DNA of 64,000 nt from Bilabrum cf. latius (lineage: Eukaryota), in NCBI GenBank assembly GCA_965178125.1, contig OZ237757.1, positions 248,001 to 312,000 on the forward strand. Reading direction: 5' to 3'. Of this stretch, positions 1 to 64,000 are shown piece by piece (the first letter of the stretch is position 1; every line of letters starts with the position of its first letter). The notes beneath the pieces were generated by a model. It was not told the origin of the DNA, did not search any database, and worked only from the letters and a program-made list of their open reading frames with translations. Position numbers and translations under genes: made by a program.

Positions 1-1893
1 GGTCACAGAGCCAGTAACGCCCAGTTGCTCGGCAAGCTGGATGGAGGGGACCCCAAGGCCAAATATCAGCCCAACGATGGTTAAAAACGTCGGTGGACAC
101 AACAGATGCGGCCTATCCGAGGCACAGCATAGGCCCCCTCGGCCTCCTCTGTGCCGGGCAGTCATGCACATAGCATCGCAACCCAAAACTGTGCACGCCC
201 GGTACCCGCAGCAGCAGGCGCATCCTGTGCGTCTGGCCCACATCCGGCAAGACGTGGTCCAGGCCAATACCTCGGAAGATGCCTGAATTCGCTCGTGAAC
301 GCTATCGCCCATTTCTCTTCTCATCGGGCTGGCATTGGGTGAGTGCTTTGTGCTGATGCCGCCACCCTTGTCTTGTTGAATAACTCGATTCGATTTAAAC
401 CGCTTGAATTCTCCGGAGCGACTAGACAAATCTGTTGTGCTGGGCGGTGCAGCAGCTACAGGGCGCAGTTTGCGCGGCACCATGTCCACGTCCGCCTCGG
501 TGATGACACTGTCTTGGCGCTTCGCGTCTGAGGTGGGCTCTAGCGCCGGAGATGGCTGCTCGGAGCTTCCATTCACACGCCGAAGTGAGCCCATCAACAT
601 GTCATGGCCGCTGGTCCATCTCTCAGGAGCGATCTGAACCAGTGATGATGACGACTGCACGGCCATGGTGATGGCCTGATCTGTCACCTGATGCTGGTGA
701 CTTTGAGAACCAGACGGCTGCGAAGGGACCAATAAGCGTGTGCCCGGCGTGGACCATCGCGTGTGCATCCGCATGGTGCTACTTCCGTGTGTAGTTCTAG
801 ACAGACTGACAGCCGGCTAGGTGGCCGGCACGCGACTCTGGCTGTGGACCGTCCCGTGCTCCGATTCCAGCACACACGCATGGTTCTTGATCAGGGATTC
901 CGCTCTCTACTGTGCGGCATACAGCCGCAGATGGCACTCCTCAGCTGACACAGACAAGCCTTTACCGGAAGCACCCGAACTGCGCGCCCGCATCATCTCC
1001 GATGCCACGCACAGCTCCTCCAAACACACCTCTGATGGAAGCACCACGCCCCCGCAGCACCACCACGTGCGCGATGGCACTGCCGCAGGAAGCTGCTGCT
1101 CCTCCAGATCGGTGTGGCTGGGCCCGCCCCTGTCCATTCGGGTGAGGGCGTGCATGGCGGCGTTCAGTGCCGCTCGTGCAGATTGCCGCACCACTGAAGG
1201 AGTCCCATCAAGCAAAATCGTCGAAAACCGTGAGCGGACTGTGCTGCTTGTCTACGTGTCGATTGCATCGCTTGACTTGGGGAGCTGTCGGCTTTGCGGA
1301 TTCAAGGCCGACGCCGAGGAACTTGTCGGCGCCACCCTGTGAGATGCTTCGCTTGCTGCTCGAATGGCACGCTGCAGCAAGCGTGTTGCCGAATCATTTC
1401 TCCTTTTGAATGCGAATGTACTGCTTGACAGAGTCAGTATGGGGATCAGAATTTGGTACACCCCGATAGGCAGGACGAAAAAAACCAACCGCCAATTAAA
1501 GTACTCTGGATTCTGTTCAAAACCACCTTGCGTTACAGCGTCCGATACAAGAACTGGTGCATTGCTGGTGTACATAAAGGACACGCTCCACCGTGTCGCC
1601 GTGCCTACCAGTGCAGCGAGCCACCAAATGCGTGATTCATAGCCACCGCCCATGGTTGCAAAGTACCATCGAAACAGCTGTACGATCTGGGACAGGGCTG
1701 CAATACTGCCCCAATTAATCCCTCGAAGCCACAAATTGCTGGTTGAGCCATCACTGGCCGCGCTGCCAGAGAAGCCGATAAAGGCAGACACTAACAACCC
1801 AATCGCAAGTGATAATACCTGTCTCTGGGATAAACAAACGCTGCCACAAGGACAGCAAGCAGGCCATATATGTATAGGACAGCATCCAACCAT
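1..1893 (-). CDS. Multi-pass membrane protein, unknown family (3' part runs off the window start; start codon uncertain)
   Basis: ORFs 1252..1920 and 907..1215 share a frame that stays open to base 1 apart from TAG at 1252, 907 and 817. It has several hydrophobic segments (LSLAIGLLVSAFIGF, WRLVFFVLPIGVYQILIPIL, FLTIVGLIFGLGV) separated by a long S/T-rich loop. First ATG after the upstream in-frame TAA (1945) is at 1893. Confidence 0.6.
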
Positions 1894-2043
1894 GAAAATA
1901 GTGAGACGGCGGGGAATCAAGCGAGAATGTGTGACACAAGAAGTTTACGTCACGATGATGACCATCGGGGCTTGGCCAATGGTTCCGCATTGTGCGCGGC
2001 GCCGAGATTTGGCCGAACACTGTGGACACGCGACTCTGCTCTA

Positions 2044-5000
2044 TCATTTCCTCTTCTTCTTCCCTTTCTTCCCCTTTTTAGACTTGCCGCCATCCGCAGC
2101 CTCGGCTGCAGCGGCTCCGCCAGTCGCCGCCCCATCCGCAGTCCCCGAGGGACCCGACGCCCCGCTCTCCGCGTCTGCCGTCGTGTCCTCCTCCTCGTCG
2201 ATCGTCTCGCCCTTCTTCAATTTCTTGATGATGCGCCGCAGCCGCGACACCTCCGCCGAGTCGCTCTGCTTCTCGGCCGCATTGGTGATGAGCTTCACGC
2301 GCGCCGCGTACACGAGGGAAGTCTGCGTCTCCTCCGTGTTGTAGTCAGCAGGGGACAAGTTCACGAACATGAGCGTCTTGCTGTTCCCGCCGATCGAATC
2401 CATCATCAGATGCGTCAGCTTGTTGTCCCTGTAAGGCACGTGCCCGCTTGATCCGCTGGACAGCACGGAGATCACGTTGCCCAGCGCGCTTAGGCTCTTG
2501 TTGATCGACTGCGCCTCCCGCAGCCTGTCGGCCTCTGCGCCCGTCTTGTCCACGCGCTCTGAGCCGGCGAGATCCACGAGCGAGATCTTGCCCCTGGCAG
2601 TCTTCTTGCTCTGCTTGTTGTAGGATTCGACCAGCAGCGTGAACACCAGGTGCGATCTCGAAGACTCGGCGTTCATCTTGGTCGAGCCTGTCGCACGGCT
2701 CCCGTTGCCCTCGTGGAAGATAGCGAGAGCCTCCTCGGGCGTCTTGGCCGGCTTGGTGACGCTTCCCTTGACGTATACCAGCTTCTTTGCGTCCAGCTTG
2801 ATGTCGAGCTTGGGCGGTTTGGCGCTCTTCTCCTTGATGTGGTCGTGCATCCACAGCAGGTCGCGCAGGTTGTCGTTGTACAGCTCGATCATGGAGCACT
2901 GCACCGTCACCTGGAGCTGCTTTTCCTTGTCTTCGATCGTGGAGAAGAGCTTCTTGATCGCTCGGGGTGTCACGCCCTCCATCCCAGGGGCTCCCAGCAT
3001 CGTGAACGTCTTTCCCGAGCCCGTCTGCCCGTACGCAAAGATGCACACGTTGAATCCGTCAAAGGCGCCGTTGATGAGCCGCTCCGTGTCCTTGAAGATG
3101 TCCTCCTGCGTGGAACCGGGGCCGAAGCAGCGGTCGAACAGGAACTGCTTGTGGCCTTTATCCCTAATGTCCAGCTGGATTGTGTAGGGGTCCGGGAAGG
3201 CGACCACCTGGTGGCACCCCCTCTCCTGCTCCGACTTGGACATGGGCCTGGCCCTGCAGTACACCCGGATCTTGCCCTTCATGTCCTCCATCTCGTTCCA
3301 GTACTCCTTCCTCAAGATCTGCTCCTTCCTAAGCTCCTTCTCCATTTCCTTGAACCTCTTTTCCCTCGATTTCAGCTCGGCCTCCAGCTCCTTGGCCTTC
3401 TTGGCCTCCTCCCGCAATGCCACAGCCTCCTCCTCGAAGGCACCAAGCGCGGCCACCTTCGCCTTGAGGTCGGCCACCTCTTTCCCGCTCGCCGCTAGGC
3501 TCTACTCCGTCTTCTCCAGGTGCTTTTGCGCCGCCGCCAGGTCCTTCTTGAGAGCAGCCACGGCCGCGTCTGCCTTGGCCTGGATCTGGTCCTTTTCCTT
3601 GTCCCAGGCCTTCTGCGCGTCTGCCATCCTTCGCTCAGCCTTCTCCTGCTGCTTGGCCTGCTCCTGCTTGGCCGCCTCAGAGCCCGCCTCGGCGGCTGCT
3701 TTCTCGGCGGCCCTCAGCTTGGCTCGCATCTCGTCCATCTGCTTCTTCTGCGCCTTTGCCCTCTCCGCCTCCTTCTTGGCGGCGGCCTTGTCACCTCCGG
3801 TGGCGCGCTTCAGCATCGACTTGGCCTTCTCAGCGGCGCCCTCCGCCTCCTTAGTCTTCTCCTGGGCCTTTTTGAGCTTAGAGCGGAGCGCGGACGCTTC
3901 AGCCTCAGCCTTGGCCGCCTTGGCTTCCGCTGCCTCGGCGGCTTTGCGGGCCTTGGAGATTGCCGCTGGGGATGCGGCCGCAGGGGCTGGGGCTGGGGCT
4001 GGGGCTGGGGCTGCTGCCTTCCCGCTGCCACTGCCCGCTGCGGCCATCGCCCTGGCCTCATGAGCATCCTTCTCGGCCTGCGCCAGGCGATCCCTAACGT
4101 CGCTCTCCTGTCTGCGGGCAGATTCCAGCTCGGACGCTTGCTGGGCCAGCTTCGCGCGCGCCGACTCTGCGTCTGCCTCGGCCGCCTTCCTGGCTTCCGA
4201 AAGGCTCTTCATCTGCTCCTGCAGCACGCCAAGCTGCGCCGCAATCGCGCCACCGTCCCCACCCGCGCCACCACCCGCGGGCCCGCCGCCCGAGCTGCTC
4301 GCTGCCAGCTCCACCAGCTGGTGGTCCACAGCCTCGATGAACGTGTCGAGCGCCCGGCGCAGCACCAGCCCGCCCTCCGCCGCATTCAGCGACTCCGCGG
4401 CCGCAACGGCGTCCTCAATGCCGCCCTTGAGCCCCACGCCAGGCAGCGGCTTGCCCTCGCCGTCCACTACGTCGTCTGCAGGCAGCTCGTCAACGAGCCT
4501 CTTGCACTGGTCCTCCAGAGCGGCCCTGCACTCGCGCTTCTGCTTCTGCTGGTACAGTTCCTGCGCCACCGAAATCGTCTCAGTGCACGAGGCTCGCATG
4601 ACGCGAAGGGAGCGAGCCGCGGCCGCCGCCTTCTCGTCCTGGGGGGCAGCAGCGGCGGCCGCGGCAGAGGCTTGCGCCTGTGCCTGGGCCATCTTCGCAG
4701 CCGTCTCTGCCTCGGCCGCATCCGCGCGCGCCTTTGCTAGGGCAGCCTGCAGCTCGCTCACTTGTGCCTCGGCGCGGGCCTTCGCCGCCTCTGCAGCGGA
4801 CAGCGCCTCCGAAGACACACCCCCATCGCCGCCCCTGCCGCCCGACCCACCGGTGGATTCCCCCGAGGGGCCAGTTCCATCACCGCGCGCCCTGTCGGCG
4901 CGCTGGTTCGCGTCGACGAGCTGGCTCCTGAGCGACTGCACTTCTCGCCTCAGCTGCTGCAGCTGCTCGTGGTCCGCCTCCGACATCCCTGCCCCGCTGG

Positions 5001-7002
5001 CAGGGGCAGCAATCCCGCTCGCTGCCTCCACCGCGCCGCCGCCTGCCCTGGGTGTCGCACCTGCTCCTCCTCCAGCTTTCAGCGCGCGTTCCAGCTCGTC
5101 GATCCGATCCTTCACCTCCTGCACGTCGGCTTCCATGGCCAGGTCGCGCTGCTGCTCCTCCCCCAGGGCGGCCTGTGCCTTGGCGGCGGCTTCCTCGGCT
5201 GCCTTGGCTTCCGCTTTGGCCGCCTTGGACTCCGCTGAGGATGCCTTGTAGGCAGCGAACTGGTCCTTGATCTCTAGCTTGGCTTCCGCCGAGGGATCCT
5301 TCCCGTGCTTTGCCTTGTACGCGTCCTGCCACTGCTTGATCCCGTCCTTGAGCTTCTTGTGCTTGTCCTTGAGTGCCTTGGCGTGATCCGCCTTGCCCTT
5401 GGCGTCCCCCGCCGCATCCTCGGAGCCCTGCCTCGCCCTGGATAGGGGACCCTCTCGGAAGGCGCGTTGTTCCCTGAGAAGCTCCTCTAGCCGCTCTCTC
5501 AGCTCCGCCAGCTCGGCCTCGTCCTCTTCCGCCGCCATGCTCTGCTCCACTGCCATGGCCGCGCTGGCAACCGCGGAGGGGGCCGCCGAGGGCGCGCCTG
5601 CAATGGGCTGCACCACGGGAGCTTCCCCGGCCGCAGCAGCCGCAGTGGCCGTCTGCTCCGGCAGCCTCTCCCTCGAAGCAGCCGCCCGTTTGCCAGCTTC
5701 CTCCGCCGCGAGATCAGCCGCCATCGCGTCAGCCTACCCATGCGCGGCCGCGGCTGCGCCTGCCGCCAAAGATGCGCTCCGTCCAGCCTCCGCCCGCGCC
5801 TGGGCCGCGCCTCTGCGCGCCTCTGCCGCCGCCTCCCTTGCCTCATCGGCCTCTCGCAGCGCCTCCTTTGCCTTTTCCTCGGCGGCATCCCTCGCCCTCT
5901 GCGCATTGCGGGCCAGCTCGGCCTGCCCATCCAGCTCCTGCTGCAGCTGCTGCCTGCGCGATTCCGAGTCCTTGAGGCGGCGCTCGGCGCCCTCGAGGGC
6001 TTCCTTGGGAACGTTCTCTCCCGATGACGTCAGTGCGGCGATCCGATCCCTCAGCTCCAGGCTGGCCCGCTGCTCGGCGCGGAGGTGCCTCCTGAGAGAG
6101 GCCTGCAGCACGCCCGCCTCGCCGCGGGCTGCTTCGGACGCCTCCAGCGCACGCAGCAATTCGGCTGCCAGCCTGGTTTTCTCGGTCTCGGCTGCCTGCG
6201 CCTCCCTCGATCGGGCCGCTGCCTCGGCCGCCAGGCGGGCGTCGAGCTCCGCCTTCTCCCTAGTGAATCGCTCCATCGCGCCCTCCCCTTCCTGCTGCGC
6301 TCTGCGCTTTTGCTGGTCCAGCTGCTTCTGTAAGGATTCTCGCTCGCTTTCCAGAGCGCCTGCGCCTTCGCGCCTCACTCTCTCGGCTTCTTCTCGCGCG
6401 CGTCGGCGCTCTTCATCGATCGTGCGACGCGCATCCACCGTTTCGCGGCGCACCCTCGACAAATCTTGGGAGGCGCGGTCCCGTTCGCTTTTAGCTTCTT
6501 CAAGCAAGCGTTTCAACTCCGTAATTCGTGTTTTGGCTTTGTCGCGCAGCTCGCTCATGTGCTTGCTGTAGTATGCCTGCGTTGCATCTTCCTGTCGCTT
6601 GTAGTGCGACACGACGCTCTCCAACTCCGACTGAAACTTCTTTCTCTGTTCGGCCATCTTTCCTTTCATCATGTCAAGGCTGGATCGTGCCAAATCAGTT
6701 GGAATGTAAGACGTTTCCTGCACCTCTGCAGCCGTTGCAGTCGGAGGGTGCGCTCTCGCGTTCGCCTGAGCCATCGTCCCGCGATGCTCCGAGGTAGCTC
6801 TTAACGTGTCATCCTCGCGAAACATGCCGGAGGCATCTCCAGATCCGGCTCCCAAGCCAGCAAGGCGTAACGGCTGGCCCGTCGAATCGAAGCCAGCCCG
6901 GTGGCCACTTGCATCCTCTGCCGTCTTGCTTTCACCGCCATCTAGAGGCGAATCAGAGTCTACGATATCTACAGCGGCCGCTAAGCCCCCATTTGCAGCC
7001 AT
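2044..7002 (-). CDS. Kinesin-14 (C-terminal motor, KCBP-like motor) with long coiled coil, ~1652 aa
   Basis: ORFs 5734..7065, 3502..5724 and 2044..3477 are one frame joined through TAG at 5734 and 3502. Motor motifs KGKIRVYCR, AYGQTGSGKT, NAESSRSH, LVDLAGSER, HVPYRDNKLT at the C-terminus; ends TGA at 2044-2046. Confidence 0.92.
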
Positions 7003-7148: not shown

Positions 7149-9599
7149 TCAAATCGAACCTGATACCTCCCGCAGCACCTTCACGCAGTCCATGTGCCCC
7201 CCCAGCAAAGCCGCCTCCACCGCCGTCACCTGCAGCACCCTCCCGCCATGCTCCAGATCATGCAGCGACTACAACGCCCCCGCCAGACGGCCCAGCACCA
7301 GGCGCTTCCCAAGCTCCAGAGGACGGCCGTCCCGAGCGCTCGCAAACACCCTCCCCGCGTCCCTCTTCGCCTCCACCGCCCGCCTCCAACCCAACAACCC
7401 GCCCCGCCGCCACCCGCACGACAACTCTACCATCGACTGGCACCGACGAGCTGCTCCCGTCCACTCGCCCCCGGGGTCGCTCGACCGCAGCCCGTACCTG
7501 CCCCGGGCCACCAGGCTCGCCTGCGCGTGCAAATCAGTGCACTCGCGGATCAGCCCCCGGGGCGCGTCCTCCCGCTCCATCAGCTCCAGCATGGCCTGCC
7601 CCACCACCACCACCTGCATCGCATTGCCGCTCTCCACGGCGTACCGGAAGCCCCTGCCACAGTAGTCCATGGCCCGGGCTCGGTCCAGGGACGGGTTCTG
7701 GTCCATGTGGCAGAGCATGCGGAGCACGCAGGCGGCTCTCGGCGGCGTGGGAACGTCGGTCATCCAGCGGTAGACTGCACTCGAGTGGTCAGTAGCAAGA
7801 AATTTATCGATCCTAGCCTAAACGGCTGATTGACAATCCCGAAATAACAGCCTTTGCAGGCCTGGGCAGTGTTCTGTGATCGTCTCTAGCACCACTTGGC
7901 ACGAATCCGCACCGAGATCGTACCCATCAATGTAAATCGTACGCAAGAGCGGGTTGTGTTGCAGGGCCAGGCATATCGAGTATACCGACGCCTCTTGCGC
8001 AAGCTCGAGCCAGATCTCTGTGAAATGCGGGAGGTGCCAGAGGATCGCGAGGGAATCCCGCGGACGAGCGTCGCCTGCGTCAGAAATGTACTTGGATAGA
8101 TCGAACTTGCAGGGCGCGTCCTGGATGGACCGCTGTCGCGTCAGCATGCCAGTTGTGCTGAGGCCAGGAACCGGCACGGTGGACTCCCAAACATCAGGCA
8201 GGGCAAGATAGACCAGCACCATGGACTTGCACGCTTCTCGCAAGACTGTCTGTATATCAACGTCCTAGGTGCCTCCGTAGTACTAAGCGAAGTCAACGCG
8301 GCGGAGGGACGAGCTTCTGACTGCCCCAAGCGCAACACGCCCGAAGATGCTGCCTTCTGTGGGATCAAAATCGTCATCGCAAGACAACTTAAAGTCGAGC
8401 AGAGTATCGTTAAGCTCCAGGCCATCTGCAAGAGTCTTGTATGCATCATCCATGCCAGCGTCATCGTTCCAAGCCTCGGATAAAGTGAGCTTGAGCAGGT
8501 TGCACGACTCGAGGCACAGCCCGCGTCCAACCGCCGCCACGCTCGGCGAGTCCACGTGCCCCAGCACCAGCTCTCGCAGGGACGGCGACCTGCCCACGAT
8601 GGACTCCACAAGTTGAGGGCAGTCATCGCCAGCGTGTGCGTTGCAGCTGAGCTTCCTTAGGGGGCACCTCGGGTTGTCCGCAAGCCATGCAACGATCGGG
8701 GCGAGTACGTTGCAGTCCTCATCATATGAGTCTGCCCCGGAGACATCGGTCTCTCGAAGTCGAGTCAAGCGATGCAATGCCCGTGTAAACGCTTTCACCT
8801 CCATTGCATCGCTGCTCGGAAGGCCTTGGAAGCGGAGAACCTGGACTTGACCAGCTGATGGGCAAGCTGCAAGTGCTTCCCAAAATTGCTTACCAATGGC
8901 ACATAAAATTATCAGCGCCTTGAGATGACGTGGTCTTGCCAATAAAGGGACTAATACGCCAGCGTTTAAATCGTTTGCACTCATGGTTTCCACGAGCACC
9001 TCCTCTAGCCCGGCTGCAGCCCCAACCCAGTTTGCAAGAATTTTGAAGCCTGGCTCAATGCCTTCGCTATCGGGTACTGTCAAGTGTACCTTTCGTAGCG
9101 AAGCCAGGCTAGCAGCGCAATCAGTCTGCGTGTACCATTCCGCTGCTAATCCTCGTGGCGCATACATGGGCAACTTTAAGCTGGATAGGGCTTGAGCTTG
9201 CCACAAGAAGCAATGCAAGTGCTTGTGCAGTTCCACGGAGTCTGCAGATAGAAAAGCTCTACAGCAAGATAAATCGAGCTCGTGGAGAGAACGGATTGCA
9301 CCTGAGCCAAGCAGTGCATTCGACATGCGCATGAAGTCACCTTTTTGTGCTCGATGACTCATACTAACGGAGAAATTGTTGCACACGCGAATGAGGTCTA
9401 CAAAGTAGCCACCTGGAAAACAATCGACGCTCACGGCAGTGCGAGAGCACTTGCTGTGGAGCGCATGAACCATCTCGGTGTAGGCTTTGCAGTTCGTCGC
9501 ATCCGAAGCAGATATCCTGCGACTGCGCAATCCCACATCCGTTAAATAGCTTATCTCCATGATAGATGCTGGACACCCGTGATCCTCTTCGTGGCTCAT
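7149..9599 (-). CDS. Leucine-rich-repeat (RNI-like) protein with C-terminal ankyrin-like repeats, ~816 aa
   Basis: ORFs 8283..9599, 7818..8243 and 7269..7763 are in frame via TAG at 8283, 8265, 7818 and 7269. LRR-like LHELDLSCC, LRELVLGHV, LRTIYIDGYDLG; ankyrin-like AVEAALLGGHMDCVKVL; ends TGA TGA. Confidence 0.75.
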
Positions 9600-9750: not shown

Positions 9751-12585
9751 TCAGCCGTGCCGAGCCGCCCGACTGGCCCTCCCGGATCTAGTCGTCTTGC
9801 TCGAGCCGCCTCTGTAAGGTGCGCCCCCAACCCCCATCTGGTTCGCAGCCGCAGCCAGCCGATACACCCCGTGGTACTGCTGCCCACCCGCACTTGCACC
9901 CGATCCCCCCGCCGAGTTCCTCTTGGAAGATCCCCCCCCCCTGCTCCTGGACCCCTTGTCTGCCCCCTTGAGTGCGTCCACGTACAGGTGCCTCTCCTCC
10001 GGGGGAATGTCCTCGATCGACCGCACGAACCGGCCCTTGTACCTCAGGCGGGCGCTCGCCAGACGCCTCCTGCACGCGTACTTGACTTTCTTAAACCAGA
10101 CCCGCCTGCGCCTCAGCTCCATGAACCGCTTCACGCGAGCCTGTCTCTACTCCACCGTGTAAGCCCCAATGTAGGGCCTGCCCTTGGGATCCTTTTCAGT
10201 GTCGTACTGCCTCGCAAGCTGGGTCAGGGGCAGCCGCCCCGGCTCCTTCTCGAATGCGCACACCCTCACGGTTCCCAGGGAACAAGTCACCTGGTTGCTG
10301 TTGCCCGAGGAGGAGGAGACCAGCACGCCGTCCACGCGGCTAGCACCGCCCCTGCGCCCAAACATGACTGCCTGCTCCGCCGCCGCTCGACGAGGGACGG
10401 ATCGCTTGCCCCAGCTCGCCGCCACCGGCGCCTGCTGGTCCAGAAAGCCGCTATGGGCACCCCTTGACGCGCGGGTGGAACCAGAGGAGGACGATGAAGT
10501 AGCCTTACCCCTGCCGCCCGATTGCCTGGACGACTTGCCGCCGCTCCTCGAGGTGCCCCCGCTGCCGCTGTGCAAGCCGTTCGGCTGGCCGCGCGGCGCG
10601 CTGGAGGCCTGCGCGTTCGAGTGCGACGGGTGGCCGCGGCCCAACAGCCTGTCCTCTCCGCCTATTCCTGCCCCGCCCCTGTCCGCCGAGGCGGAGGAGA
10701 AGAGGTCGATCGAGCTGCCCTTGCGCCTCCGCTTGAGGTCCGAGGGGGTCCCGAAATCGCGGCTGCTGGCCCTGCCCCTAGACATGGGCAGGCCACTGAC
10801 CCCGAGACCCGAGTCCGAATCCATGCTGTCCTGCCGCGAGCGGCCCCCGCTGCGGCGTCGCTTGCGAGAGCCCACGCCCTCCAACCCACTCCGCTCGAGC
10901 CCAGCTCCGCCGGTGCTGTTCCCCAGGAGGGAGCCCATGGCCTGCTCGTCCGCCTCGCTGGCACTGCCCAGCGAGCCCCTCCTCCTGCGGGCCTGCATGG
11001 ACGACAGCATGGGCGACTTGCCGCAGTGGCTGCCAGCGCCCGGCAGGACGGGGGGCACCGTCGACGGGAGGCGGCCCCTGCCGGCCGCCGCCAGCGACTC
11101 CTTCCGGCTCGCGGCCGCCTGCTTCGAGTCGACCCCGTGCAAAGAATTCATGGGCACCACGTCGGACACGTTGACCTGCTGCCTGCCCTGTGCCTGGCCC
11201 CCGTGGGAGTGCCCGTGGCCGCCCACATCCCCCTGCACGGCTGCAGAGGCGCTCCCGCTGTCCTGCTCCATGCCATGCGTCTGGCTGAACCGCCGCATGG
11301 TGTGCCTCCGGAGCTCTGCCACGGAGGACTCTGCACCCGCTAGCATGGGCAGGCCCATGGCCTGGGCTGTGCCCCGCCCGTCCTGGCTGCCCGACGAGAC
11401 CCGACGCCTTTTCTCGCCACCCATGCCCGAAGGCGACTAGGACGAGGAGACATGCGCTGCTGCATTCATGGCTCCGGCCGATGCGATGTAACTGGAGGAT
11501 AAAGCAGAAGACGAGGACGATGTAGGTGTACCGGAGGGAGGCATGGACGTGATGGCGGCCGGCACAGACGGCGAATGGGCTCCTCCTCCTAGTCCCAAGC
11601 CAATGCCCATCGCGTCACCCATGTCCATTCCCGCCTCCATGCCCATGCGACTGTCGCTGGCGTCCTCATAGCTGGGCTCGTTGATCATGCCTCCGTACGG
11701 GCCCATGCCGCCGATCCCAATGCCAGAGCCCTCCGAGCTCAGGCTCCCGCTGCGCATCCTCCGCCTGGCCGCCTCCATCCTCAGCCGCTGGCCCTGGTCG
11801 AGCTCAGCATCCTCCTCCTCTCCGTCGGGGCGACCCAAGGCCGCGTCCACGATCTGCTGTGCCTGCACCTGCAGGTCGGTGAGCGGGGCTCCACCCTGGG
11901 CCAGTGGCGGCTCGCCCGTCCCCTAGCCGGCGCCTGCTGCACTCCCAGTCGAAGCAGACGTTGCGGAAGAAGATGATCCTGGTCGCGCTGTTCCCTGATG
12001 ATGATGCGCCTGAGGACCGTCGCCAGACAGCGGCGACATGCCCTCGGCGTCCGAGCTGCCGTGCGACGAGCCGGCCGTGGCGCCACCCTTCGCGCCTGCC
12101 GCCCGCGCCGCCAGGATAGGCTCTGTTGCAGTCGATGCGTTGCTCGCGCCTCCTCCCATTTGTTCTGCTTGAGGGGGGGGCACGAGGTGCATGGCGAGCG
12201 CGCTGCTGCTTCCGCCGCCTGGTGCGGAATGTGGTATGTCATTGCCCTAAGCAGCTGCGCTCGCCGAAGATGAGTCCGATAATAAATTTCTGGTATTACT
12301 ACATGAAGAATTGCTGGTGCTAGTCACCAGAGCAACGGCAGGCGCTGATGAAGCCCCTGCCGCCTGTCGAGATGCGGCGTTGTGGCTGCCACTGACGGCA
12401 GCACCTGCTCGGGCAGCTGATGCGCTCTCCCGCACCGCAGCTGCCGCCGATTCGGCCGCAGAGCCAGCGGTACTGCTACTGTTAGTCTGAATAGGCGCAG
12501 ATGAAACAGCACTGGGCGCCTACCTCGGCCGAGAAGCTGTTGAAAACTCGCTCCTGTCCAAATCATCCTGCGACATTGCGCGCAT
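9751..12585 (-). CDS. CCT-domain protein with long low-complexity N-terminus, ~944 aa (alternative start 12576)
   Basis: One frame via TAG at 12520, 12247, 11923, 11437 and 10147. C-terminal IGAYTVE*RQARVKRFMELRRRRVWFKKVKYACRRRLASARLRYKGRFV matches the CCT motif; ends TGA. Confidence 0.85.
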
Positions 12586-12902
12586 TAATTCACCGCAACG
12601 CACAGTCTCGACTCCACGCTAGAAAGCCTCTCCAACTGGCAAATACGATGGAACACCAACATCTGAGTCATTCAACGACCCTAACTGCGGTAACAGAGGC
12701 AGGGTCTAGAAAGCAAAAGGAGCCAATTTCTCCCACTGGTGGACAGTCTTGCTCGCACTGGGGAAGACGAGCCACTGCTAGTTCGTGCAATCTGTAAAGC
12801 CGACTACCCGGTCGTGAAAAAACATGATAGCACTCTTGCTGCGTGGTAGATTGCTGCCCCTATTTCATTCTCAACCACGGTGCTCACATTATCCAGCCCC
12901 AG

Positions 12903-39853: not shown

Positions 39854-40488
39854 TCACTGCCTGTACATGTCTTCAAACTTCTTGTCTGCTGCTGTAGAGC
39901 CCTGCACTTTTCGCTTGGAGACGCTAAATACTGAAATATCTCCCCTATCTGTGCCTCTCCCATTCGACTTCCCTAGCTGGGACTTGATCCATTCGTCCTG
40001 GCTGGCATGCTCAGTGCGGACGGGGTTGGCTCTCTCGTTCTTGTCCCATGCTACTTCTGGGTTATACATTAAAGAACGCCCACCGTTATAGACTGCCCAA
40101 CCTACTGCAAAAGCAATTGCTCCAATAATTGGCCACGTCTGCGAGAATACAAGCTGGTAAAGCGGCGTGATGTGCTGGCATCGGACATCCTTGATGGGCA
40201 CCTGATTCGCGGGACGGAAAACTGGAAGACATCCTGCAATTCTACACATGGTGTTCCCTGGTTATTCTTCTGGCTAAAACCGACATGTAGTAATGCTCAT
40301 GCTTATCACGTATGTCCCTACAAGGACAGCTTGCACGCTACAGTCAGCCCAAAGGTTAGCACTTGCAGTTGGCTCCGAGAGGTACCCCTTTTTGCCCTCA
40401 CATCCTTTTTCATCGTCCAAATGGCTCGCTCATTCGGAATAGCTTGGCGACCACGACCTACAGCACGAACAACTCGAGAGACTCGCAT
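39854..40488 (-). CDS. NDUFA4/B12D-like small mitochondrial membrane protein, ~123 aa (exons 40402-40488, 39854-40138)
   Basis: TWPIIGAIAFAVGWAVYNGGRSLMYNPEVAWDKNERA resembles the B12D/NDUFA4 motif; Arg-rich N-terminus MRVSRVVRAV; GTGAGG...TCGCAG intron 40139-40401; ends TGA. Confidence 0.65.
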
Positions 40489-53400: not shown

Positions 53401-56400
53401 CTGGACGATGGAGACGTTGAACTTGTTCGGTCAGGAGGCGAGGACAACTCGGGCCCGCAGGGCAGTGCAGGGTCTCGGAAAATGCGCGGATTCGTGATCC
53501 GTCTGAACCGATGCGGTTTCTTCGACTTTTTGGTCGCGACAGGCGATGTACCTTCTCGCAGCCTAGATGCTACCATCGACTGTGACCAGTCGCTCAGCGT
53601 TCGCCGTGCTGCCTTGCTGTAGGCAGGATACAGTGCTGTGTTCGGCGGCTCTGAACTCCTTGGTAGCTGGACCTCACTGATCGCCACCTACGATGGTGAC
53701 ACGGGTGAGCAGCGCCTGTACATTGATGGGCAAATGGACACATCAACTGACGGTCTAGGCTCGGCGATGGCACCTTCATTTCTGCCTAACGCTCGTGGGG
53801 GCGTGTCGGGCCCCATGTAGGGAGCGCTTCAGGTCGGTGCGATCTACCTCGAGACACACAGGCGGGTTGAGATCGTGCTCGACGAGGTACTCATGTGGGA
53901 CTACGCGGTTGATGCGGAGGCTGTTGCCACGCTGGCGAGTTTCGGAGGGTCGGCGCTTGACGTGCAAATGCGGGTCATTGCTGGCCGCCCGCCCGTGGCA
54001 GGAACCGGGGACCCATCTAACGATGACGACACGATCTAGGCAGATTGTGGGGTTACCCTTGGCCAGCACGCTGGCTGCAAGCTTCGTATGTCGTACAGTG
54101 CGACTCCATACCTAACAAGCACCTCTCCTTCGTCTGGCCCGCCCAAGGTATCTATTGTCATCCACGGCAGCAAGCTGCAGGCTGCGTAGGGTTACGACAC
54201 TGACGTGTCTGTCGGCGAGGTGGCATGCCATGTGACGTAGGTATGGACAAGTGGCGATCGCTTGCGGTGTGAAATACAGCAAGGAAATCCCGGGCTAGCT
54301 CCCGTGAAGGTTACAATCGGTGGGAGGGGTACAGCTGTGGCGACACACGCAGTCGGCGCAGCGGCTGAGGCAGGCATATTCGACTCTTCTACTGCTTCCA
54401 TTGGGGCTGATACATCTATACCGCGCTTTTTCTTCGAGCGCAAGATGGTTGTGGAATCGGTTTCTCCTTCCGCGGGTTCGCTGGAGGGAGGCACGCGGGT
54501 GACAATACTAGGCAAGGGTTTCGGCTGGACCCCGGAGTTGCTGCGCGTGCTCCTGCCCGGAGGTGTGCCGTGCGACGTGGATTTGCATGCTACGAGTGCT
54601 TTGTTGCCGAGCAGCATTGTCTGCGTGTCGGGCCGCAGCACGAGCAACCCTATCCTACCTTCTGACCACCCGCTTCGGCGGCAGTACAGCGGCCAATGGT
54701 CTGCGACGGGCTCTTTTGGGCAGCAAAACGAGTTACGATCTGGTGACGTGGAGGTTCTGTGGTGGTAGATGGACCCAGCCGCGCGTGCCGCTTCACTGGC
54801 ATCGGCGGAGACCACCAGGCGGCAGGAAGCTATGGCCAACGATCCGGCATCCTCTGCCTCGAACGGCCTTGATGTGCTACCGGCTGACCCAGTGGACTAC
54901 TGGCCGACAGCTGGAGCCAGGTCGTCTTCAAAGTGCGGCGATCTTGGCGAAGATCCGTGCACGTTCGCTTTTGACACTGCATACACACCCGGCATATCGG
55001 CCTTATCTCCCACGCAGGGTGCGCATGCTGTGAACGTAACCATATCCGGCACTCGATTCACTCGCTCTGGCATCTAGAGCACTGTTGCCGACGATGTGAC
55101 TGTGTATGTTGGCAGCGAAGAGCGCGATAGCACGGCCCACCAGTGCGTATTGCACCCCAGCCTCGCCACCCATACTTCCATCACTTGCTCGATGCCCGCC
55201 GACGCGGGTTCCAGAACGCTGTCGCTGCACGTGGGTGGTACGGCAAACCTCGGGTGGGCCATGCCGCTTGCTTCGATGGATCGTAAGCTGCCGAAGTACG
55301 TGTACGCTGCCAGCATCGACAGCTTCGAGCCCTCCTCCTTGTCTTTTGCGGGTGGCGACGAGATCGTGGTGAGGGGCTCTGGTCTGCTCGGAGGCAACGG
55401 TGACATGCTTGACGTGCATGTGGGAGGTAAGTCTTTGCCGTGCCCCATCGACAAGTCGCGTTCAAGCAGCACCGTGCTCGTGTGCAAGGCCCCAGCAGCT
55501 CCCGAGCAGGATTTCTCTGCGATCGGGGCCACGGTCTCGAGGACTTTCCCGGCTGCTGGCTGGAGCAGCGCTGTGATCTCGACTGGAGGCTCGCGCAGCG
55601 TGCGTCAAGGTACCTGGGAGTCCACGACCGGCCCGCACGGATCTATCCGGAGGACCGCGTCCGGTCGCACCACGGCAGACTCCTCCGAGGCGACCCCGAT
55701 CGAATCAGACGCTTTTTGCAGCCAGTTGCAGGCGGTGTGGAGAAGTGCCGCTGATGCTGCGGATGGTAACATCCCAGCATCTCCTGTTCCACTGGCAGGT
55801 CTGGTGGCGCGCGACCTGATCAGTCAGCTACCCGTTGCGCTCTCCCCAACTGCCACTACACAGTCTGTAGATGTCGACGTCTCCGTATCCCTCCGCAAGA
55901 TTGGCTCGATTGGGCCCTGGGCCAGCCCTGCTCTCACCAACGACGTTGTCAGCGCATTTGGTGCGGTGCTTGGGTGGTCAGGCAGCCGGAACTACCTTGC
56001 CATCCTTGCAGCAAGCAGTGCGACAAGGTGGAACAGCACCCGCCATCCGGATGGAGCCGGCATTCCGGCCGGCTGCATGGCCGTGATTCGTGCACAGGGA
56101 AGCACACCAGAGCTGCTGGCTTTCCGCAGCGTGTCAAGAGAGCACGACTCGCCATCCATCGTCCGTCGGCTGATAGACAGCCCCGACTACAGCGGAACTG
56201 AGGGTCATCTCAGGGTTGTCCACGCAGCCGGTCGCCTTCGTGCGGCACTCGATGGTGAGCCGTTCATCCAGGACGCGGCCACGCAGGTGGTGGCCACATC
56301 CCAGGCGCAGCACGCATTTGCTGGTGCGAGTGCGACCCCCGGCGCGATCCTCACTGGGCTGTCAGCCTCGACGACCGGCAGGGTCGGTCTGATCGCTGCT

Positions 56401-59400
56401 GCAGGACACACAGGAGCACCGAACGAGGGCCGCGCGCTAGGTGAGTCAGCAAGCCTCGAATACAAAGATCTGCGAGTCAGCGAGACCAGCACTGGCAGTC
56501 AAAGACCGGCGACCATGCACGGGCCCAACAAGGCCCCTGCAGCACTCTCCGCTGCAAGCATTGTGTACTCCCTGGACCCCAATGTGGTCGGCGAAGGTGC
56601 AGGGGCAGCTCAGTTTGATCCATTGAATGTCGAGTATGACTCAAGGGTATCACCGAGGGTGGATTCCGTGGTGCCAGGCGTGATCCGCGCCGTCACCCCC
56701 GGCATCGTGTCGCTGCTTCTGGCGGGGGCTCGCAGCCCTAGCTCTGCCAATGGCACCGCTGATGTGTCTGTACAGGTCGGGGGCGTGCCATGCGAGAATC
56801 CTGTGCTCAGCAATGTCGAGAGCAGACTGACAAGGGTACAGTGCACGCTCACTCCAAACCCTTAGAAGCCACTCAACATGGGTTGGCAAGCCGTCCGAGT
56901 GGCTGTGGATGGGAGGCCCGCTGCAGGCTTACACTCAATCTATGTCCTGCCTTCCGTGGGAAACGTGGACGCCGAGCAATTCGGTTCCTCTGCAGGCGGA
57001 AAAACAGTTGGCATGTCGCACGGGGGGCTCAGCCACTTGGGAGCCTTCGCCTCACAGTCTGCCTCGAGCGATGGCGGCTGGGTACCGCTGGAAGGCGTGC
57101 TACGCATGTCTCTTGCGTACGACGGCATTAGCGACGCCGCAGAATTGGCCCAAGCTGCGGTCAACGCGTCTGGGCTCATTGGTGATGCAAACACTAGCCC
57201 GAGTGAGCTTGCGTTGATGTCGGCAGCCGCTCGCAGGGTAGCGTCAGGCTCTCATGCAGGCGCCTGGGCCGCCGCTGATACCGAGGTGAGGGTGTGTGGC
57301 GTGCCATGCAATCCAGCAAGCGGCGGAGCACAGTACCTACGGTGCGTGACAGGCGCAGTGCTTCCCATGGAACGTTCGCTAGCCCCTTGGGTGGCCACTC
57401 TGACCAGCAGAGGCGGATACGACGACGCATCACAAGGGTACGTGACACCCCGTGACGCAGCCACCACCGGGGAGCAGGTCCTGCGCCATCGAGTGGATGC
57501 CACATCTGGCCAAATCGCGCTGGGCAAGGGGCAGGTGTCAGTGATGGCATTTCCGTCGCTTCGGTTGCCTGCGTTTTCGGATGTGGGCATTGCCCAGCTG
57601 ACAGTGACCGCGCAGCAGCAGAGCGGCTCTGACGAGGATGTCTTGCTAGGCATCCTGCCTGTGCTGCTGCCCGCCATTGATGCTGTTAAACGAAACGGAC
57701 CTGGCGGCTCTCTGGATTGGAACGGCGGGCTCTCAGCGATGCCCGGCGCACTGTCTCAGCTTACTGCACGCGCCCTTGCAAGAACCATGAGGAGAGCAGT
57801 GGCGGCCGGCAGCGCCCACGCAGCCACCCTATCCAGTGTTGCCGACCAGCTCGGCGTAATAGACGGACAGGAAATGTTGTTCGCTCCCCGCGAAATGATG
57901 CTCTGGAGGCCTCCTGCCTTCCAGAAGCAAGGCGAGTCGCACGTGCTGCCCGACCTGTCTGTGCTGCTTGAGCAGGCCCTCGAAGATGCTGGCGCCAGCG
58001 AGTACTCGCATTCTGGGGGCAATGACACGGATGACGAGTACGTGCACTACGACGAGCATTCGAGCGTGCTGGCCATCGTGATCGTGGATGCCTCAGTTTC
58101 GTCTGCCTCTGTTGCAGGGTCAACGCAGAACGCATATCCAATCTCCGCTGTTAGTGGCAATGTGAACAGATGGCAAGAAGCCGCAGCGGCCGCTGCGCAG
58201 ATGGTGGGGCGGGAAGACGATGCTGCAGGCACGTTAGCTGATGAGGAGGCAGCGGCCCTTCGGTCCGAATCAAGCGGCATGCTCGGTCCAGACCCCGAAG
58301 CACCCACGGGTCAAAGCAGCGATATTTCGTCTGGGTCGGCGCGGGCTGCTTGGGCAGGCTACCGAGTCGCTTATAGCGGAGACGCAGAGCGTGAAGATTA
58401 CAGGCCTCAGCTGCAGATTGAAGTGGCTCCTGCCCATGGGATGGACGCTCCTCTGCCCATCCGCTGGTCGCGCGCCGCTGCTCTTCGGACACCGGCCGTG
58501 CTGGCAGTGGCTCAGGACCCTATTGTTAGAGACGCCCTTCTGGGCAGCAGTACTGAGGCACAGTCTGTTCTCGCAGACATGGCCAGCGCGCTGGCGGGTG
58601 CTCTTCAGGAGGATTCTAGTGAAACCGATGATGATCTATCGCTGGTGCTTCCTGGATTGCTGCCGTCGCTGCCCGTTGCTCTTCGAGACGGGCCGGTCGG
58701 TGACACCTCATTAGCAAGGGATGCCTGGATGCAGGGCGTGGCTACGTGGTTGCTGGATGCTGCTGGTGCCCTCAATTGCACCACAGAAGTGTGGAGCAGG
58801 GACGCGCCGGGGGCAGCCACGGCTAGGCTCATGGGACGGGACGTCTCCATTGACACGCTCGATGCAGAGTCCAACCCGGAGTGGCATGAAGTGGAGGCTA
58901 CCGACGGGATCGTTCGATCCGCTTTAGAGACGAACACATGGGGTACAGATGTCGGAATGCAATCAGCCTCCTCTTGGAATGGAGCAGCAGATGCTATGGT
59001 GTTCGCCAGCGCAGGATCCACCCCAGAAGGAGCAATCGATTCGCAGGACGGTGCCACCGGCTGGAATGTGGCATCAACAGAGCTGTTCGGCACGCAACTG
59101 CCAGTGCAGCTCGCTCTATGTCTGCGCGATCCTGTGATTGGCGACAGGATCCGGATCGCGATAAATGCCACCTCGGCGGTCTAGCAAGAGCTGCTGCGGT
59201 CGACATCAATCGAGTTGCGAATTGGCGCATTGGCAATGCCAGAATCCGATGCTATGCTCGGGTTCGTGCAGTAGAGCGCGGCGGCTCTGAATCTTGCCAG
59301 GCTGCGGGAGCAGAGCCCACTCGCCGCAGGTACAATGCAAGGCAGCGCAATCGATCGCATCTCCGCCTGGGTAGCGTTCTCATCCGATTCTCTATATGCA

Positions 59401-62400
59401 TCCGCGGTTCAAGTCAACGACCAAGGGGTTTTCGAGCTCATCATCGACCTGGCGGCCGCGGCTAGTCAGCAGGTGGCGCGTGGCTCACTACCCGCAGTGC
59501 CTCTGGATGTTCTCAAGACAACAGCTTGGGTATCTATCTCACTGCAGCAGGGCAGCGAAGATCCATCTGGGGATGCAATGGAATCCAGCATTATCATCAC
59601 CAGCATTCAGGTTGAAACTTCTCAGGCCAGCCTCCCGCGCCGCAGTCTGGTGGCTAGCTCGGATCCGCACCTCTCTCTTGCAGTCTAGTCGCTCCATGGT
59701 GGGCACTCGAACCACCCCCAGGGACACGAGGTATCCCGCAGGCTGGCCACCCAGTCGCCACTGGCTCGGACTGCCCATGCCCTTCGCAGCACACTGCATG
59801 CAGCAGTGGGACACTCACACAGGCAGCTCCTCGACCTTGCTGCTGCCACCGGTGATGCCCATCCGAACGGGCCCAGGGCACTGCTGGCTCAGCGGCAGAT
59901 CATTCAGGACGGCAGGCGCTGGCGTGCCAGTGACAGAGATGGCGCTTCCTTGGATGAAGCGCACGCTATGCATCCTGCCGCGCCGGGGTCCAGGCGAGTG
60001 CTCCTTGGAGCGTCCCGAGGCATGCCGCAGGATCGCTCACGCCAGTTGTCTGCCGAGCACGCCCGCAGGCTTTTCTTCTTTGGTGGATTCTTCCCATTCC
60101 CGATCATACCGCAGCCTGTCACCACGTCAGTGTCACCGCCGCGGGGAAGCACCAAGGGAGGCACGCTGCTCACCATCTCTGGCCGGCACTTTGGAACCAG
60201 AGCTGCAGATGTTACTGTGACTCTTGGAGGTGCACAGACACTGTGCGATAGCATCGAGACGATCTCAAACACACGGATCACCTGCTACACCCGAAATCTT
60301 GGTTTTGGGACCGGTGCGCTGGCTGTGCTTGTGCGCCGCCGGAATGTCGGCCTGGGAATCCTCACTGGCGATTCAAGCACGTACTAGTACGCAGACGTGT
60401 GGTCTCGCAGCTCGACGTGGGGCGGAGAGCCTCCCCCGCGAGAGGGAGAGAGTGTGCACGTGCCGCTCGGCTCGATCATCTTCCTTGACATCTCGCCCCC
60501 CAGGCTGAGGCTGATCGTCCTCTAGGGCACGATGGTGGTGCTGTCAGATACAGACGAGCACTTGCGCCTGAGTGCCGAGTGGATCATCGTCAATGGCCTC
60601 GGGTCGCAGTTCGTAGCCGGACACCCCTCTCTTCCGCTGCAGGGCCGTTTCACCATCGAGATGCTTGGACACGTGAAGACCCCAACCCTGCCGATCTACG
60701 GCGCCAAGTCGCTCGGTGTCTGGGAGGGCTTGCTGTCCTTCCACGGCCGAGCGGTAGGCAAATCATTCGTGCAGCTGGGGCAGACCGCCCACCGGCTTGA
60801 CGACGAGATCGTGTTGCACGAGAGGATTGAGACGAGAGACGGTTGGGAGGCAGGCTCCACGATCCTAATCACGTCCACTCATGCCGGTGCCGATGCAGCC
60901 GCGCTTCGCACGGAACGGGTCGTGATCAAGGAGATCAAGTCGGACAGAAAGACCATCGTGCTTCGGTCAAGGCTCAGGCACAACCATGAGGCCACAACGT
61001 ATGAGTACGAGGTGTCCAAGACGAACGTGACGGCAGTGCCTACTGCAGGTGGAGGATATGTGCCCGGTGTTGATTCTGTGCTCACAACACGCAGAGTCGA
61101 GGTTCGCGCAAGAGTCGCTCTGCTTACGAGGAGTATCACCATTCAGAGCGATGCTGCAAGATTCAGGGCGCCGGAGCGTTTCGGCGTGACGGTGACCCTG
61201 CACAACCCGGGGCGGGAGCGCGCTGTCGCCATGTGGAGCAACGTCGCCATCCGACGGGGCGGACAGGCCGGTAGGCTCGGCAAGTGCGCGATCAGCTTCA
61301 GCATGATGGGTCGAGTCACGCGGAACTACCTCGAGAATCTGGTGGTGGAATCATCCATGAATCGTGCCGTGTGCGTGCGCGGGGTGCGGAACCTGCCAAT
61401 CCGCGGGCTGGTGGCAGACTCCATCCGTGGCCACGCCGTGTTCCTCTCTGACGGAGTTGAGGACGGTACTCGCCTGGAGTAGGCTCTGATCTCTCGTGTG
61501 ATGCCGGTGGATGTAGGCGGCTTCAACACGGAGCAGCAGCCAGCAGGAGTGTACCTTGCCTCGCCCGGTGCAGACCTCCGAGGTGTGGTGGTTACCGCGG
61601 CACCTCACGGAGTTTGGCTTTGGCCACCTGCCTCACCCATGGGTGCGTCGTCTACCAGTGCTGCTGCACAGACCCTTTGTCCTTCATCCACAGCCCTGGG
61701 TGTCTGGTACGGCGTGGAGGCCATCAGCGGTGACTATGGCGTTCGGTTCACTGGTATCCACACCCCTCGATCGGACCCGTGTGACGAGGACTCTGCGCCG
61801 GTGTCATCGTATATCGGCGGAGTTTTGGCTGCCAGGCAGCTGGAGAAGGGCGTGGTGATTGCGGCAGATACGCGGGTGGTCGTCAGGGGCGTGACGACGA
61901 TCGACTGCCACGTGGCTGCGATCGAGTTCCCTGGTGCTGACGGCGGGCGGCTCCACGGCTGTTTCGCTGGAGACTCCGGTGCGAGCGATGTGACGATCAT
62001 CGGGAGGTCCGGGTCAGATCTTGATTTGCACCCCGGGTTGGCGGCAGACGCTCCCGCGTACTGGCCCCCTCGGATGGGCGTGCTGCTGCCTGCATGGCAC
62101 GGAGCTCACCTAGTCAACGTGTCATTCGCTTCATTCGGACCCCAGGCTGCGACTGCTTAGTCCTCAGGGGATGGCGGCCATGAGGATGACTATGCTGTTG
62201 GCGCTTGCTCAATGTGCGAGCGGTTCACGCCCTACGGTGGCGGCTGGGAATCAAGGTGGAACCGGGTCTGGTGGTCGACTGGACGGATGGCAGAATGGGA
62301 TCTGGAAACATCCAGGCCGGCGTACCCCGATGCATTTGACAACAACACCGGGAGCGAGATCTCGAGGCGCATGCTGTGGCGCTGGGAGCATGAGGGCGTG

Positions 62401-64000
62401 ATCGCTGACTTGGACGGGACCTTCTGCCCCTTGCAGCCGGGCGATGTGGCCTACAGCCAGCTCGACTATCCTCACGCGCTACCGAGGACCATCTTGCCAT
62501 ATACGCCGCTAGCCGATGTTGCCTCAGCCGATTGTGCAGTGGCTCCAGACCCCGAGTACACGCATGGTCGCGGTGGAGGAGTCGTGTGTGCGGGAACGCC
62601 ATGGCGCAGGCTTGCAGCCAACAACACGATCCCCGAGAGTCTGTTCCGCCGAGACTTCACCCTCACTCCCGTAGATGGGTGGCGGCACCGCCTGTCTGCC
62701 CCGGTGGATGCCGGCGCGGAAGCGGACGCCCCGTTTTCGAATGCGAGAAGGACGCATCCAGGCGGCTGGGTGGCTCTCGTTCCTGGCAATTCCACCATCC
62801 TCATCGGCTTCAGGCATCCAGCATGGCCGGATCTTCACCTGCAGCAGATAGAAGTGGGCGCGGGCGAGTTCGACAACTGGCCCACCCCTGCAGCTCAGTC
62901 GCCCGAGCTCGCTGCACTGTCTATGATGCTGCCCTATGAAGTGGGTCACGGCCTTGACCGCTGGACAGACGATGAAGTCTGGCTTAGGTTGGCGTTTCCT
63001 CACGCACTGGACCGTATCGAAGTCGAGTACAACCTCGTGGCTGAGGCCCCACACAATGATATCGTCGTGCAGTCTCCCACGGTCGGAATCCCTGGGCGGC
63101 ACACCATGTTCGGATCGTGGACCATGGACACGGCAGCTACCACTGCCGTCGTTCTGTTGAACGGAAATGACGCCTCCCGCCTGGAACGTGACAACCGCAT
63201 GTGCCGGCATTCGACGTACGCCCGCATCACTGCTTACAGGGCAACAAGTTGGGGCGATGGTGGTGGAGGCGGGGGCGGGGGTGGTGGAGGCGGAGGAGGC
63301 GGCAGTGGAGGTGGTGGAGGCGGCGGTGGAGGCGGCGGTGGAGGTGGTGGTGGGAGCGGAGGAGGAGGTGGCGGTGGAGGTGGCTCCTCGCCATGCCCCA
63401 CCCGATGCGAGCTTCTAGGGTACCGCGAGACATTCAAGAGGCTGTGGTCCTTCTCTTCCACGTGGACTGGCATGCCATGCATGGGATACACCGGGCTGCC
63501 CGTTACCGGACAGACCGTCGTCATCTCAGCCAACAAGCACGTGGTTCTGGATGTATCGACACCTGTTCTCCGTGCACTCGTCATCGAAGGCATTCTTGAG
63601 GTGCACGACAGGGGCGAGGGTACTGCGCCTCTCCTGCTTCAGGCCGAGCACATTATCATCCGGAAGCACGGTGCGCTGCTCGTGGGATCGCCGGCGCGGC
63701 CCTACCGCGGCAACTTTGAGATCCGCATGGTGGGCGACAGGCACAGGCCAGCGTTCCTGAACGGCTTCGACACGTTTGCGCCTAGCAAGGCCATCACTTC
63801 TAACGGAAACCTCACTTTGGTGGGCATCAGCAGGAGACCCTCGTGGACTCGGCTGCTGAGATCCGCCAAGGCTGGCGACACCGAGGTGGTGGTCATGGGC
63901 CAGGCCCAGCTCTGGCGAGCCGGCGATCGCATCGTGTTAGGGCCTACTGGTTTCAGGCACAACGAGACGGAGGAGGCCATCGTTCGCAGCGTGACCCGGC
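47456..64000 (+). CDS. Giant fibrocystin-L (PKHD1L1)-like surface protein: signal peptide, many IPT/TIG repeats, PA14-like, LamG-like, G8 and beta-helix regions; >5,300 aa, runs off the window end
   Basis: Exon 47456-47594 (signal peptide + VVPTEGSLLGGTLLSIYG). From 47960 one frame to 64000 with 20 TAG and no TAA/TGA. IPT repeats (VSPSAGSLEGGTRVTILGKGF), LamG-like (WTSLIATYDG..RLYIDG..LDEVLMW), G8 (VWSRSSTWGG..., second at ~63440), RVALLTRSITI, GQAGRLG, RWEHEGVIADLDG. Confidence 0.9.
47595..47959 (+). other. Probable intron region (365 nt; may contain a micro-exon)
   Basis: GTGAGG donor and CTGCAG acceptor give an in-frame junction; AT-rich; a second GTGAGT at 47907 makes the exact structure uncertain. 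Confidence 0.55.
63259..63384 (+). repeat. GGN codon tract encoding a ~42-residue poly-Gly linker
   Basis: 40 Gly + 2 Ser codons in the fibrocystin-L-like frame, just before the second G8 domain. Confidence 0.9.

Follow-up and report, generated by a model that had tools for sequence, protein, structure and literature searches.

Nuclear genetic codes in which UAG and UAA have parted in meaning are rare; those listed in PMC11687900 belong to ciliates, a single fornicate, a single rhizarian and a genus of green algae. UAG alone is listed as glutamine in the fornicate Iotanema spirale and in the ciliates Hartmannula sinica, Trochilia petrani and Protocruzia tuzeti, and as leucine or serine in a rhizarian, in ciliate metagenome-assembled genomes and in Scotinosphaera; the passages of that paper that list the UAG-only cases name no stramenopile. 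Here we describe a 64,000-nucleotide stretch of contig OZ237757.1 (positions 248,001 to 312,000, called the window throughout), in whose genes the codon TAG recurs in frame. We read it, with a probability of about 0.93, as nuclear DNA of a Cafeteria-like bicosoecid that uses UAG as an ordinary third glutamine codon and UGA and UAA as stops (NCBI table 15). The initial annotation of the window had named Iotanema and a few ciliates as the known users of such a code, which agrees with the list.

Iotanema spirale shares this code: UAG is glutamine, UAA and UGA are stops, and neither of them shows any sign of use as a sense codon (PMC5304391). It is, however, an unrelated fornicate in which UAA predominates among the stops, whereas UGA closes 13 of the 17 complete genes here. 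Hartmannula, Trochilia and Protocruzia likewise reassigned UAG alone to glutamine. In the first two, UAG occurs in about 80% of genes and makes up 18.5-31.8% of glutamine codons, compared with 17 of 19 genes and 12% in the window; the guanine-plus-cytosine (GC) content of the class is 27-54% and UAA ends 87-98% of genes in the recoded phyllopharyngeans, whereas the window is 61% GC and dominated by UGA (PMC11687900). The argument of that paper, by which UAA is locked in by its heavy use, therefore does not carry over. Under NCBI table 6 (ciliates, ulvophytes, hexamitins, oxymonads and aphelids; PMC11687900) UAG is glutamine as well, but so is UAA, whereas the window has no internal TAA and four of its genes end with it. 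Condylostoma, Parduczia and Blastocrithidia also read in-gene stop codons as amino acids and have short 3' untranslated regions (UTRs), but all three stops are sense codons there (PMC5304391), whereas TAA and TGA never stand inside a gene here. Cafeteria (C. roenbergensis/burkhardae), the nearest named relative, has the same compact, intron-poor genes (PMC6972860), but its B56 gene is intact under the standard code with 19-20 glutamines. Its GC content is 70-71% (PMC6972860) and that of Halocafeteria seosinensis is 46.8% (bioRxiv 10.64898/2026.06.25.734631), compared with the 61% given above, and on this ground the window probably comes from neither of them.

In-frame TAG across the window

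Under the standard code the longest frame on the + strand spans 2,319 nucleotides. Reading TAG as sense lengthens it to 16,075 nucleotides; treating TAA or TGA in this way instead brings no gain (2,319 nucleotides). We collected 18 open reading frames (ORFs) representing 17 genes, one of which, a GH79 glycoside hydrolase, counts as two exons. Taken from the first ATG, or from stop to stop for two genes, they hold 101 TAG, 606 CAG and 150 CAA in 19,175 codons, without a single internal TAA or TGA. TAG thereby accounts for 101 of 857 glutamine-type codons. In-frame UAA as glutamine, the feature of table 6, is absent (no TAA within genes beside 101 TAG and 150 CAA), and in-frame TAA as common as TAG, which the initial annotation had named as an argument against its own reading, was not seen. 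Originally, 17 genes had been credited with 94 internal TAG and no TAA or TGA; the latter part holds, and the difference in the count is probably due to the choice of starts, by which the 5'-most TAG of some ORFs may fall outside the true coding region. Gene ends agree exactly with the first count, at 13 TGA and 4 TAA among the 17 complete genes; the other two of the 19 leave the window.

Since the absence of internal TAA and TGA is partly a consequence of how the ORFs were defined, it was tested by the off-frame rate and by a codon-usage score. In the two shifted frames TAA and TGA together occur at 2.1% per codon, and for the 5,346-codon frame of a fibrocystin-like gene to lack both by chance, log10 P is about -49. 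The codon-usage score stays level across TAG (0.117 before and 0.115 after, n = 90 sites) and drops past terminal TAA or TGA, from 0.197 to -0.129 (n = 15 genes, p = 3e-5). Past the three scored TAA ends it was -0.19, 0.02 and -0.08; the other 12 scored ends are TGA. Pfam domains span TAG in the B56, GH79 and nucleotide cyclase genes, and the kinesin motor, CCT and G8 domains are located behind TAG.

TAG also stands inside CAG runs, as the initial annotation had noticed (for example AAG TAG TAG CAG CAG at 17259), although neighbouring codons show a modest enrichment (13 of 101; baseline 7.2%, p = 0.03). The share of TAG did not correlate with GC content at third codon positions (rho -0.04, 19 ORFs). 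Two small genes, one of them B12D/MLRQ, have no TAG among 22 glutamine codons, and the kinesin gene has 3 among 90; judging by these low counts, UAG may be avoided in highly expressed genes.

TAG in spliced transcripts

The sequence is present in nine public runs (X1 to X9) from four studies, where one sequence goes under four organism labels. This points to a flagellate that is present in mixed cultures, or in samples registered as something else. Four of the nine runs were aligned to positions 44001-64000: X5, X6 and X7 from two studies and X8 from a third. X1 to X4 possibly represent the source sample and were excluded as support, and X9, with a small share, was left out. All of these runs are assembled contigs rather than raw reads, in which rare variants are lost, so that low-level editing could go unseen. 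None is on record as RNA, and the RNA origin of X5 to X7 is read from their spliced joints.

Contigs of X5, X6 and X7 skip the 512-nucleotide GT..AG intron of the B56 gene, and a 15.5-kb contig of X5 skips the 365-nucleotide GT..AG intron of the fibrocystin-like gene; these contigs therefore derive from mRNA. TAG is found at 22 of 22 sites of 44001-64000 in the spliced contigs of X5 and at both B56 sites in those of X6 and X7, with no other letters in either case, and the unspliced X8 is identical to the window at four TAG sites. A look for UAG in mRNA had been proposed at the outset; in these contigs no CAG replaces TAG, and no splicing goes around it. Because TAG is unchanged in the spliced contigs and in the unspliced run, it is not the product of assembly error, editing or splicing. 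The B56 transcript contigs end at 47095-47102, which gives a 3' UTR of 30-37 nucleotides past TGA; gene end and transcript end were compared for this one gene.

Identity of the residue at TAG

A scan of metagenomes yielded two loci, L001 and L002, from 87 pattern matches. L001 (55% GC), the locus of a sister species, has the gene order GH79, small membrane gene, B56 in common with the window, and in B56 the two are 79% identical in nucleotides and 91% in amino acids. The B56 frame of L001, with five TAG inside it, stays open as far as a TGA whose position matches that in the window. When the two loci were aligned with TAG masked as X, ten aligned pairs involved TAG. All five pairs with a flank identity of at least 12/14 have TAG facing CAG (three), CAA (one) or TAG (one). 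The TAG sites of the window and L001 lie mostly at different positions. L002, a more distant and intron-rich relative, has no TAG in three matched stretches and is uninformative.

Two B56 TAG columns, including 46655, hold glutamine in 114 of 119 homologues. The Pfam score of B56 was highest with glutamine at TAG (396.6 bits), followed by Lys (395.1), Glu (394.3), Tyr (392.7) and Leu (392.1), at one site and with small margins. The original statement that TAG falls at conserved glutamine sites is thus right for these two B56 columns and for the five well-aligned pairs with L001, while the columns in distant homologues are mixed.

Protein fragments of the same clade in databases, made with the standard code, all stop directly before a glutamine codon of the window (16 of 16; 13 of B56 and 3 of GH79). 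Seven end before TAG and nine before CAG, at seven different columns; as several fragments are the same gene in related samples, seven columns is a fair count. Outside the clade there were 21 flush-ended matches, of 26 in total, and all of them end before residues other than glutamine. Fragments P0255 and P0256 have glutamine opposite a window TAG. We read UAG as glutamine because of the spliced RNA contigs, the TAG/CAG/CAA swaps with the sister species and the clade fragments that break only before glutamine. UAG is found both in the DNA and in spliced transcripts, the coding sequence runs on beyond it, and between relatives it alternates with CAG and CAA. The code put forward by the initial annotation, with UAG as glutamine and UAA and UGA as stops, is thereby upheld.

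Placement of the lineage

The nearest named B56 homologue is that of Cafeteria roenbergensis (71% over the scored region). A maximum-likelihood tree of B56 was built from 21 rows picked from the best matches, with most plant matches omitted. In it, the window, L001 and fragments P0136 and P0255 form a clade (100/100), with P0002 as its sister (91/88, below the starred level). Together they join Cafeteria and two relatives at 100/100, apart from Blastocystis, in which some stop codons are completed by polyadenylation, a phenomenon distinct from reassignment. A quick tree of 46 rows agrees, with 100 for the Cafeteria grouping in the Shimodaira-Hasegawa-like approximate likelihood ratio test (SH-aLRT). 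Because the TAG-using B56 sequences group with Cafeteria roenbergensis, the organism is most likely a bicosoecid stramenopile near Cafeteria, which narrows the stramenopile-like flagellate first suggested. The change of UAG to glutamine is common to a small clade. P0136, P0248 and P0255 tile the B56 gene, and we infer that they are one transcript of a third species. The B56 sequences of Cafeteria, P0002, P0005 and P0007 are unbroken under the standard code with 17-23 glutamines each; at a TAG share of 12%, each unbroken gene is modest evidence for the standard code in these relatives. The B56 sequence P0130, labelled Symbiodinium sp. KB8, lies at zero distance from Cafeteria roenbergensis and is therefore probably contamination in that record.

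Alternative readings

A number of observations weigh against UAG as an ordinary glutamine codon in such an organism. The five TAG pairs in poorly aligned stretches of the L001 alignment face GCA, TCA, GCC, GGC or GAG. The other three TAG columns of the L001 B56 gene hold Ala in 78 and Gln in 25 homologues, are dominated by Glu (Gln 7) or are gapped. At GH79 column 172 (window TAG 42136), 124 homologues have Glu and 8 have Gln, and column 161 is mixed among homologues and faces GAG in L001. TAG columns of the fibrocystin-like gene hold mostly other residues among its four distant homologues, AC9 has Ala and ANPR1 has Gln at the cyclase column, and the CCT columns are mixed; PDB alignments of GH79 and the fibrocystin-like protein are too distant for their TAG columns to be read. 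The stop letter is invisible in database fragments, TAG being read in the DNA of the window and L001. The placement comes from one gene with one named bicosoecid. No tRNA gene was found in the window (ARAGORN, Rfam) or in L001 and L002 (ARAGORN), and the 64-kb window contains neither an eRF1 nor an rRNA gene, so the expected tRNA-Gln(CUA) and eRF1 were not encountered. A further point, the crowding of TAG near gene ends, is taken up below.

The GH79 columns could mean that TAG is a sense codon for glutamate or another residue, given the 124 Glu at column 172 and the GAG of L001 facing the window TAG at 161, and UAG as glutamate is known in one ciliate (PMC11687900). L001, however, has CAA at column 172, the well-aligned pairs swap TAG with CAG and CAA, the fragments break 16 times before glutamine and never before glutamate, and the B56 Pfam score, for its one site and small margins, favours glutamine; we consider such a meaning very improbable. 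Still less credible is that the TAGs are sequencing or assembly errors, lie in pseudogenes, or are removed by U-to-C editing or splicing. The loss of rare variants in contigs and the indirect recognition of the runs as RNA would leave room for it, but contigs of three studies are identical letter for letter and those with GT..AG introns removed retain every TAG. Pseudogenes would also acquire TAA and TGA, of which there are none, and the 79% identical L001 has this pattern as well, mostly at different sites. UAG might, on the other hand, be dual in the manner of Condylostoma, with glutamine inside genes and termination towards the 3' end of transcripts, and TAA or TGA behind as back-up. The last 15 codons hold 7 TAG where 1.3 are expected, in 6 of 17 genes (at 21086, 27075, 34739, 34754, 35011, 42827 and 47036), an excess relative to CAA and CAG (Fisher p = 4e-4, post hoc, with several interval sizes tried) that supports a dual meaning, as does the short B56 3' UTR of about 30-37 nucleotides. 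All 17 complete genes nevertheless carry a terminal TAA or TGA, and none requires TAG as its end. AAG shows a similar excess near gene ends, so part of the late-TAG signal may be compositional. The B56 tail past the late TAG is kept in L001, which lacks that TAG (TAC TCG TGA in the window, TAC TCA TGA in L001), and this favours read-through. We therefore hold a dual meaning to be unlikely, though less so than the two alternatives above. The late TAGs could once have been stops that translation now passes to reach a UGA or UAA close by, or some termination may persist at them, close to the poly(A) tail.

It is also conceivable, with a better chance than a dual meaning but well short of even odds, that this glutamine code is real and already described for the lineage. 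The sequence is in runs of four studies, so several groups had the data. In the literature searched, from which most subscription journals and supplements were out of reach, we came across no reassigned nuclear codon for bicosoecids or for stramenopiles at large, and a supplementary table of a phylogenomic study could carry the observation. The suggestion that the code is unreported accordingly stands within that literature. The Cafeteria paper (PMC6972860), the Cafileria paper and a stramenopile review mention, in the parts available, only mitochondrial codes as non-standard. The cases listed as of December 2024 include no stramenopile (PMC11687900), and in the accessible part of a Halocafeteria preprint C. 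burkhardae is the sole bicosoecid whose genome is said to be well described, and a change of code does not come up (bioRxiv 10.64898/2026.06.25.734631).

Genes of the window

The - strand opens with a gene of unknown family that leaves the window (1..1893, three in-frame TAG). It is followed by a kinesin with a C-terminal motor domain (2044..7002, -; PF00225, 7e-107), which ends with TGA and then TAG; its start at 7002 was picked by eye within an ORF that opens at 7149, and the motor domain lies downstream of TAG at 5736 and 3504. No relative turned up when viral contigs were scanned with the motor domain of this kinesin. An 816-residue ORF with no Pfam match (7149..9599, -) has four TAG and ends with TGA. 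The CCT-motif protein (9751..12825, -; PF06203, PDB CONSTANS/HD1) has eight TAG, one of which immediately precedes the CCT motif, and a TGA end. On the + strand follow a RabGAP-TBC protein (13557..16448; PF00566, four TAG, TGA) and a TPR/SBF2-like protein (16914..20864; both matches below cut-off) with nine TAG, two of which start a poly-glutamine run, and a TAA end.

The two-domain nucleotide cyclase (21075..27098, -; PF00211) contains 16 TAG and ends with TAG GCC TGG TAA. Next to it lie a 236-residue ORF with no Pfam match (27031..27741, -; one TAG, TGA end) and a small ORF whose C-terminal tail is hydrophobic (27874..28389, -; two TAG, TGA end). The latter has no Pfam or PDB match and looks SNARE-like by eye; in a Qc-SNARE, its TAG at 28056 would be the zero-layer glutamine. 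In the protein kinase (28590..30992, +; PF00069, three TAG, TGA end) a long insert rich in Gly and Ser splits the catalytic domain past the activation segment; similar low-complexity inserts occur in the B56, TBC and hydrolase proteins. A 161-residue hydrophilic ORF with no Pfam match (31206..31691, +) has no TAG among 14 glutamine codons and ends with TAA. The PRKCSH-like protein (31823..34771, +; PF12999) has nine TAG, two of them within the last 10 codons, and a TGA end. Short tandem repeats lie directly behind a gene end of the window (34900-34990) and at the end of L001 (near 6250-6337). A 953-residue ORF with no Pfam match (34994..37855, -) has five TAG, the last one four codons before TGA.

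An alpha/beta hydrolase (37867..39627, +; PF07859, five TAG) and a B12D/MLRQ small protein (39854..40249, -; PF06522, no TAG among eight glutamine codons) both end with TGA. The GH79 glycoside hydrolase (40848..42649, -; PF03662) consists of two frames with four TAG and a TGA end, probably joined by a short intron near 41912. Its position 172, which is glutamine in the window (TAG) and in L001 (CAA), sits two residues before the GNE motif, whose Glu we take to be the likely catalytic one; glutamine there appears to be a lineage-specific change beside that residue. An ORF with a weak V-ATPase subunit f-like match (42819..43997, -; three TAG) ends with TAG CTG TAA. The PP2A B56 regulatory subunit (44517..47065, +; PF01603) has exon 1 at 44517-44606, a GT..AG intron at 44607-45118 and exon 2 at 45119-47065, with TAG at 46655 and 47036 and a TGA end. 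The fibrocystin-L-like TIG/G8 gene (47456..64000, +) contains 20 TAG, and neither TAA nor TGA, in its more than 5,300 codons and runs out of the window. It has a short first exon followed by the intron near 47594-47959, and its protein has a signal-peptide-like start, many TIG repeats and two G8 domains. A long poly-glycine tract lies near 63250-63390, where the contigs break.

Discussion

[quoted passage not shown] As part of the same proposal, eRF1 would have to recognise UGA and UAA and not UAG. The table-15 type of code is known already, and its origin here is probably independent and unreported. The reassignment may also be so recent that UAG codons which once ended genes are still there, as glutamine codons a few positions ahead of today's stop.

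The change could have come about if the anticodon of a duplicated tRNA-Gln(CUG) became CUA by one change, which would pair with UAG and not with UAA, and if the affinity of eRF1 for the G of UAG was lost, with UGA and UAA still recognised. In Iotanema, eRF1 carries T32G in the GTS motif, whose threonine contacts the G of UAG, and the standard-code relatives of Iotanema keep that threonine (PMC5304391, PMC9161772). The reassignment would have arisen once, on the branch of the clade after its split from Cafeteria, and independently of the ciliate and fornicate cases.

A stramenopile case adds a major lineage to the nuclear codes that separate UAG from UAA, and a UGA-dominated genome of 61% GC contrasts with the UAA-dominated known cases. 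Proteins of the clade in public databases are fragments cut at glutamine, hidden from phylogenomics and metagenome annotation. The standard-code sister Cafeteria is a laboratory model with genomes, a giant virus and a virophage (PMC6972860). Such a sister makes it possible to address which change in eRF1 frees UAG alone, what became of genes that formerly ended in UAG, and how viruses that end their genes in UAG fare within a host that reads it as glutamine.

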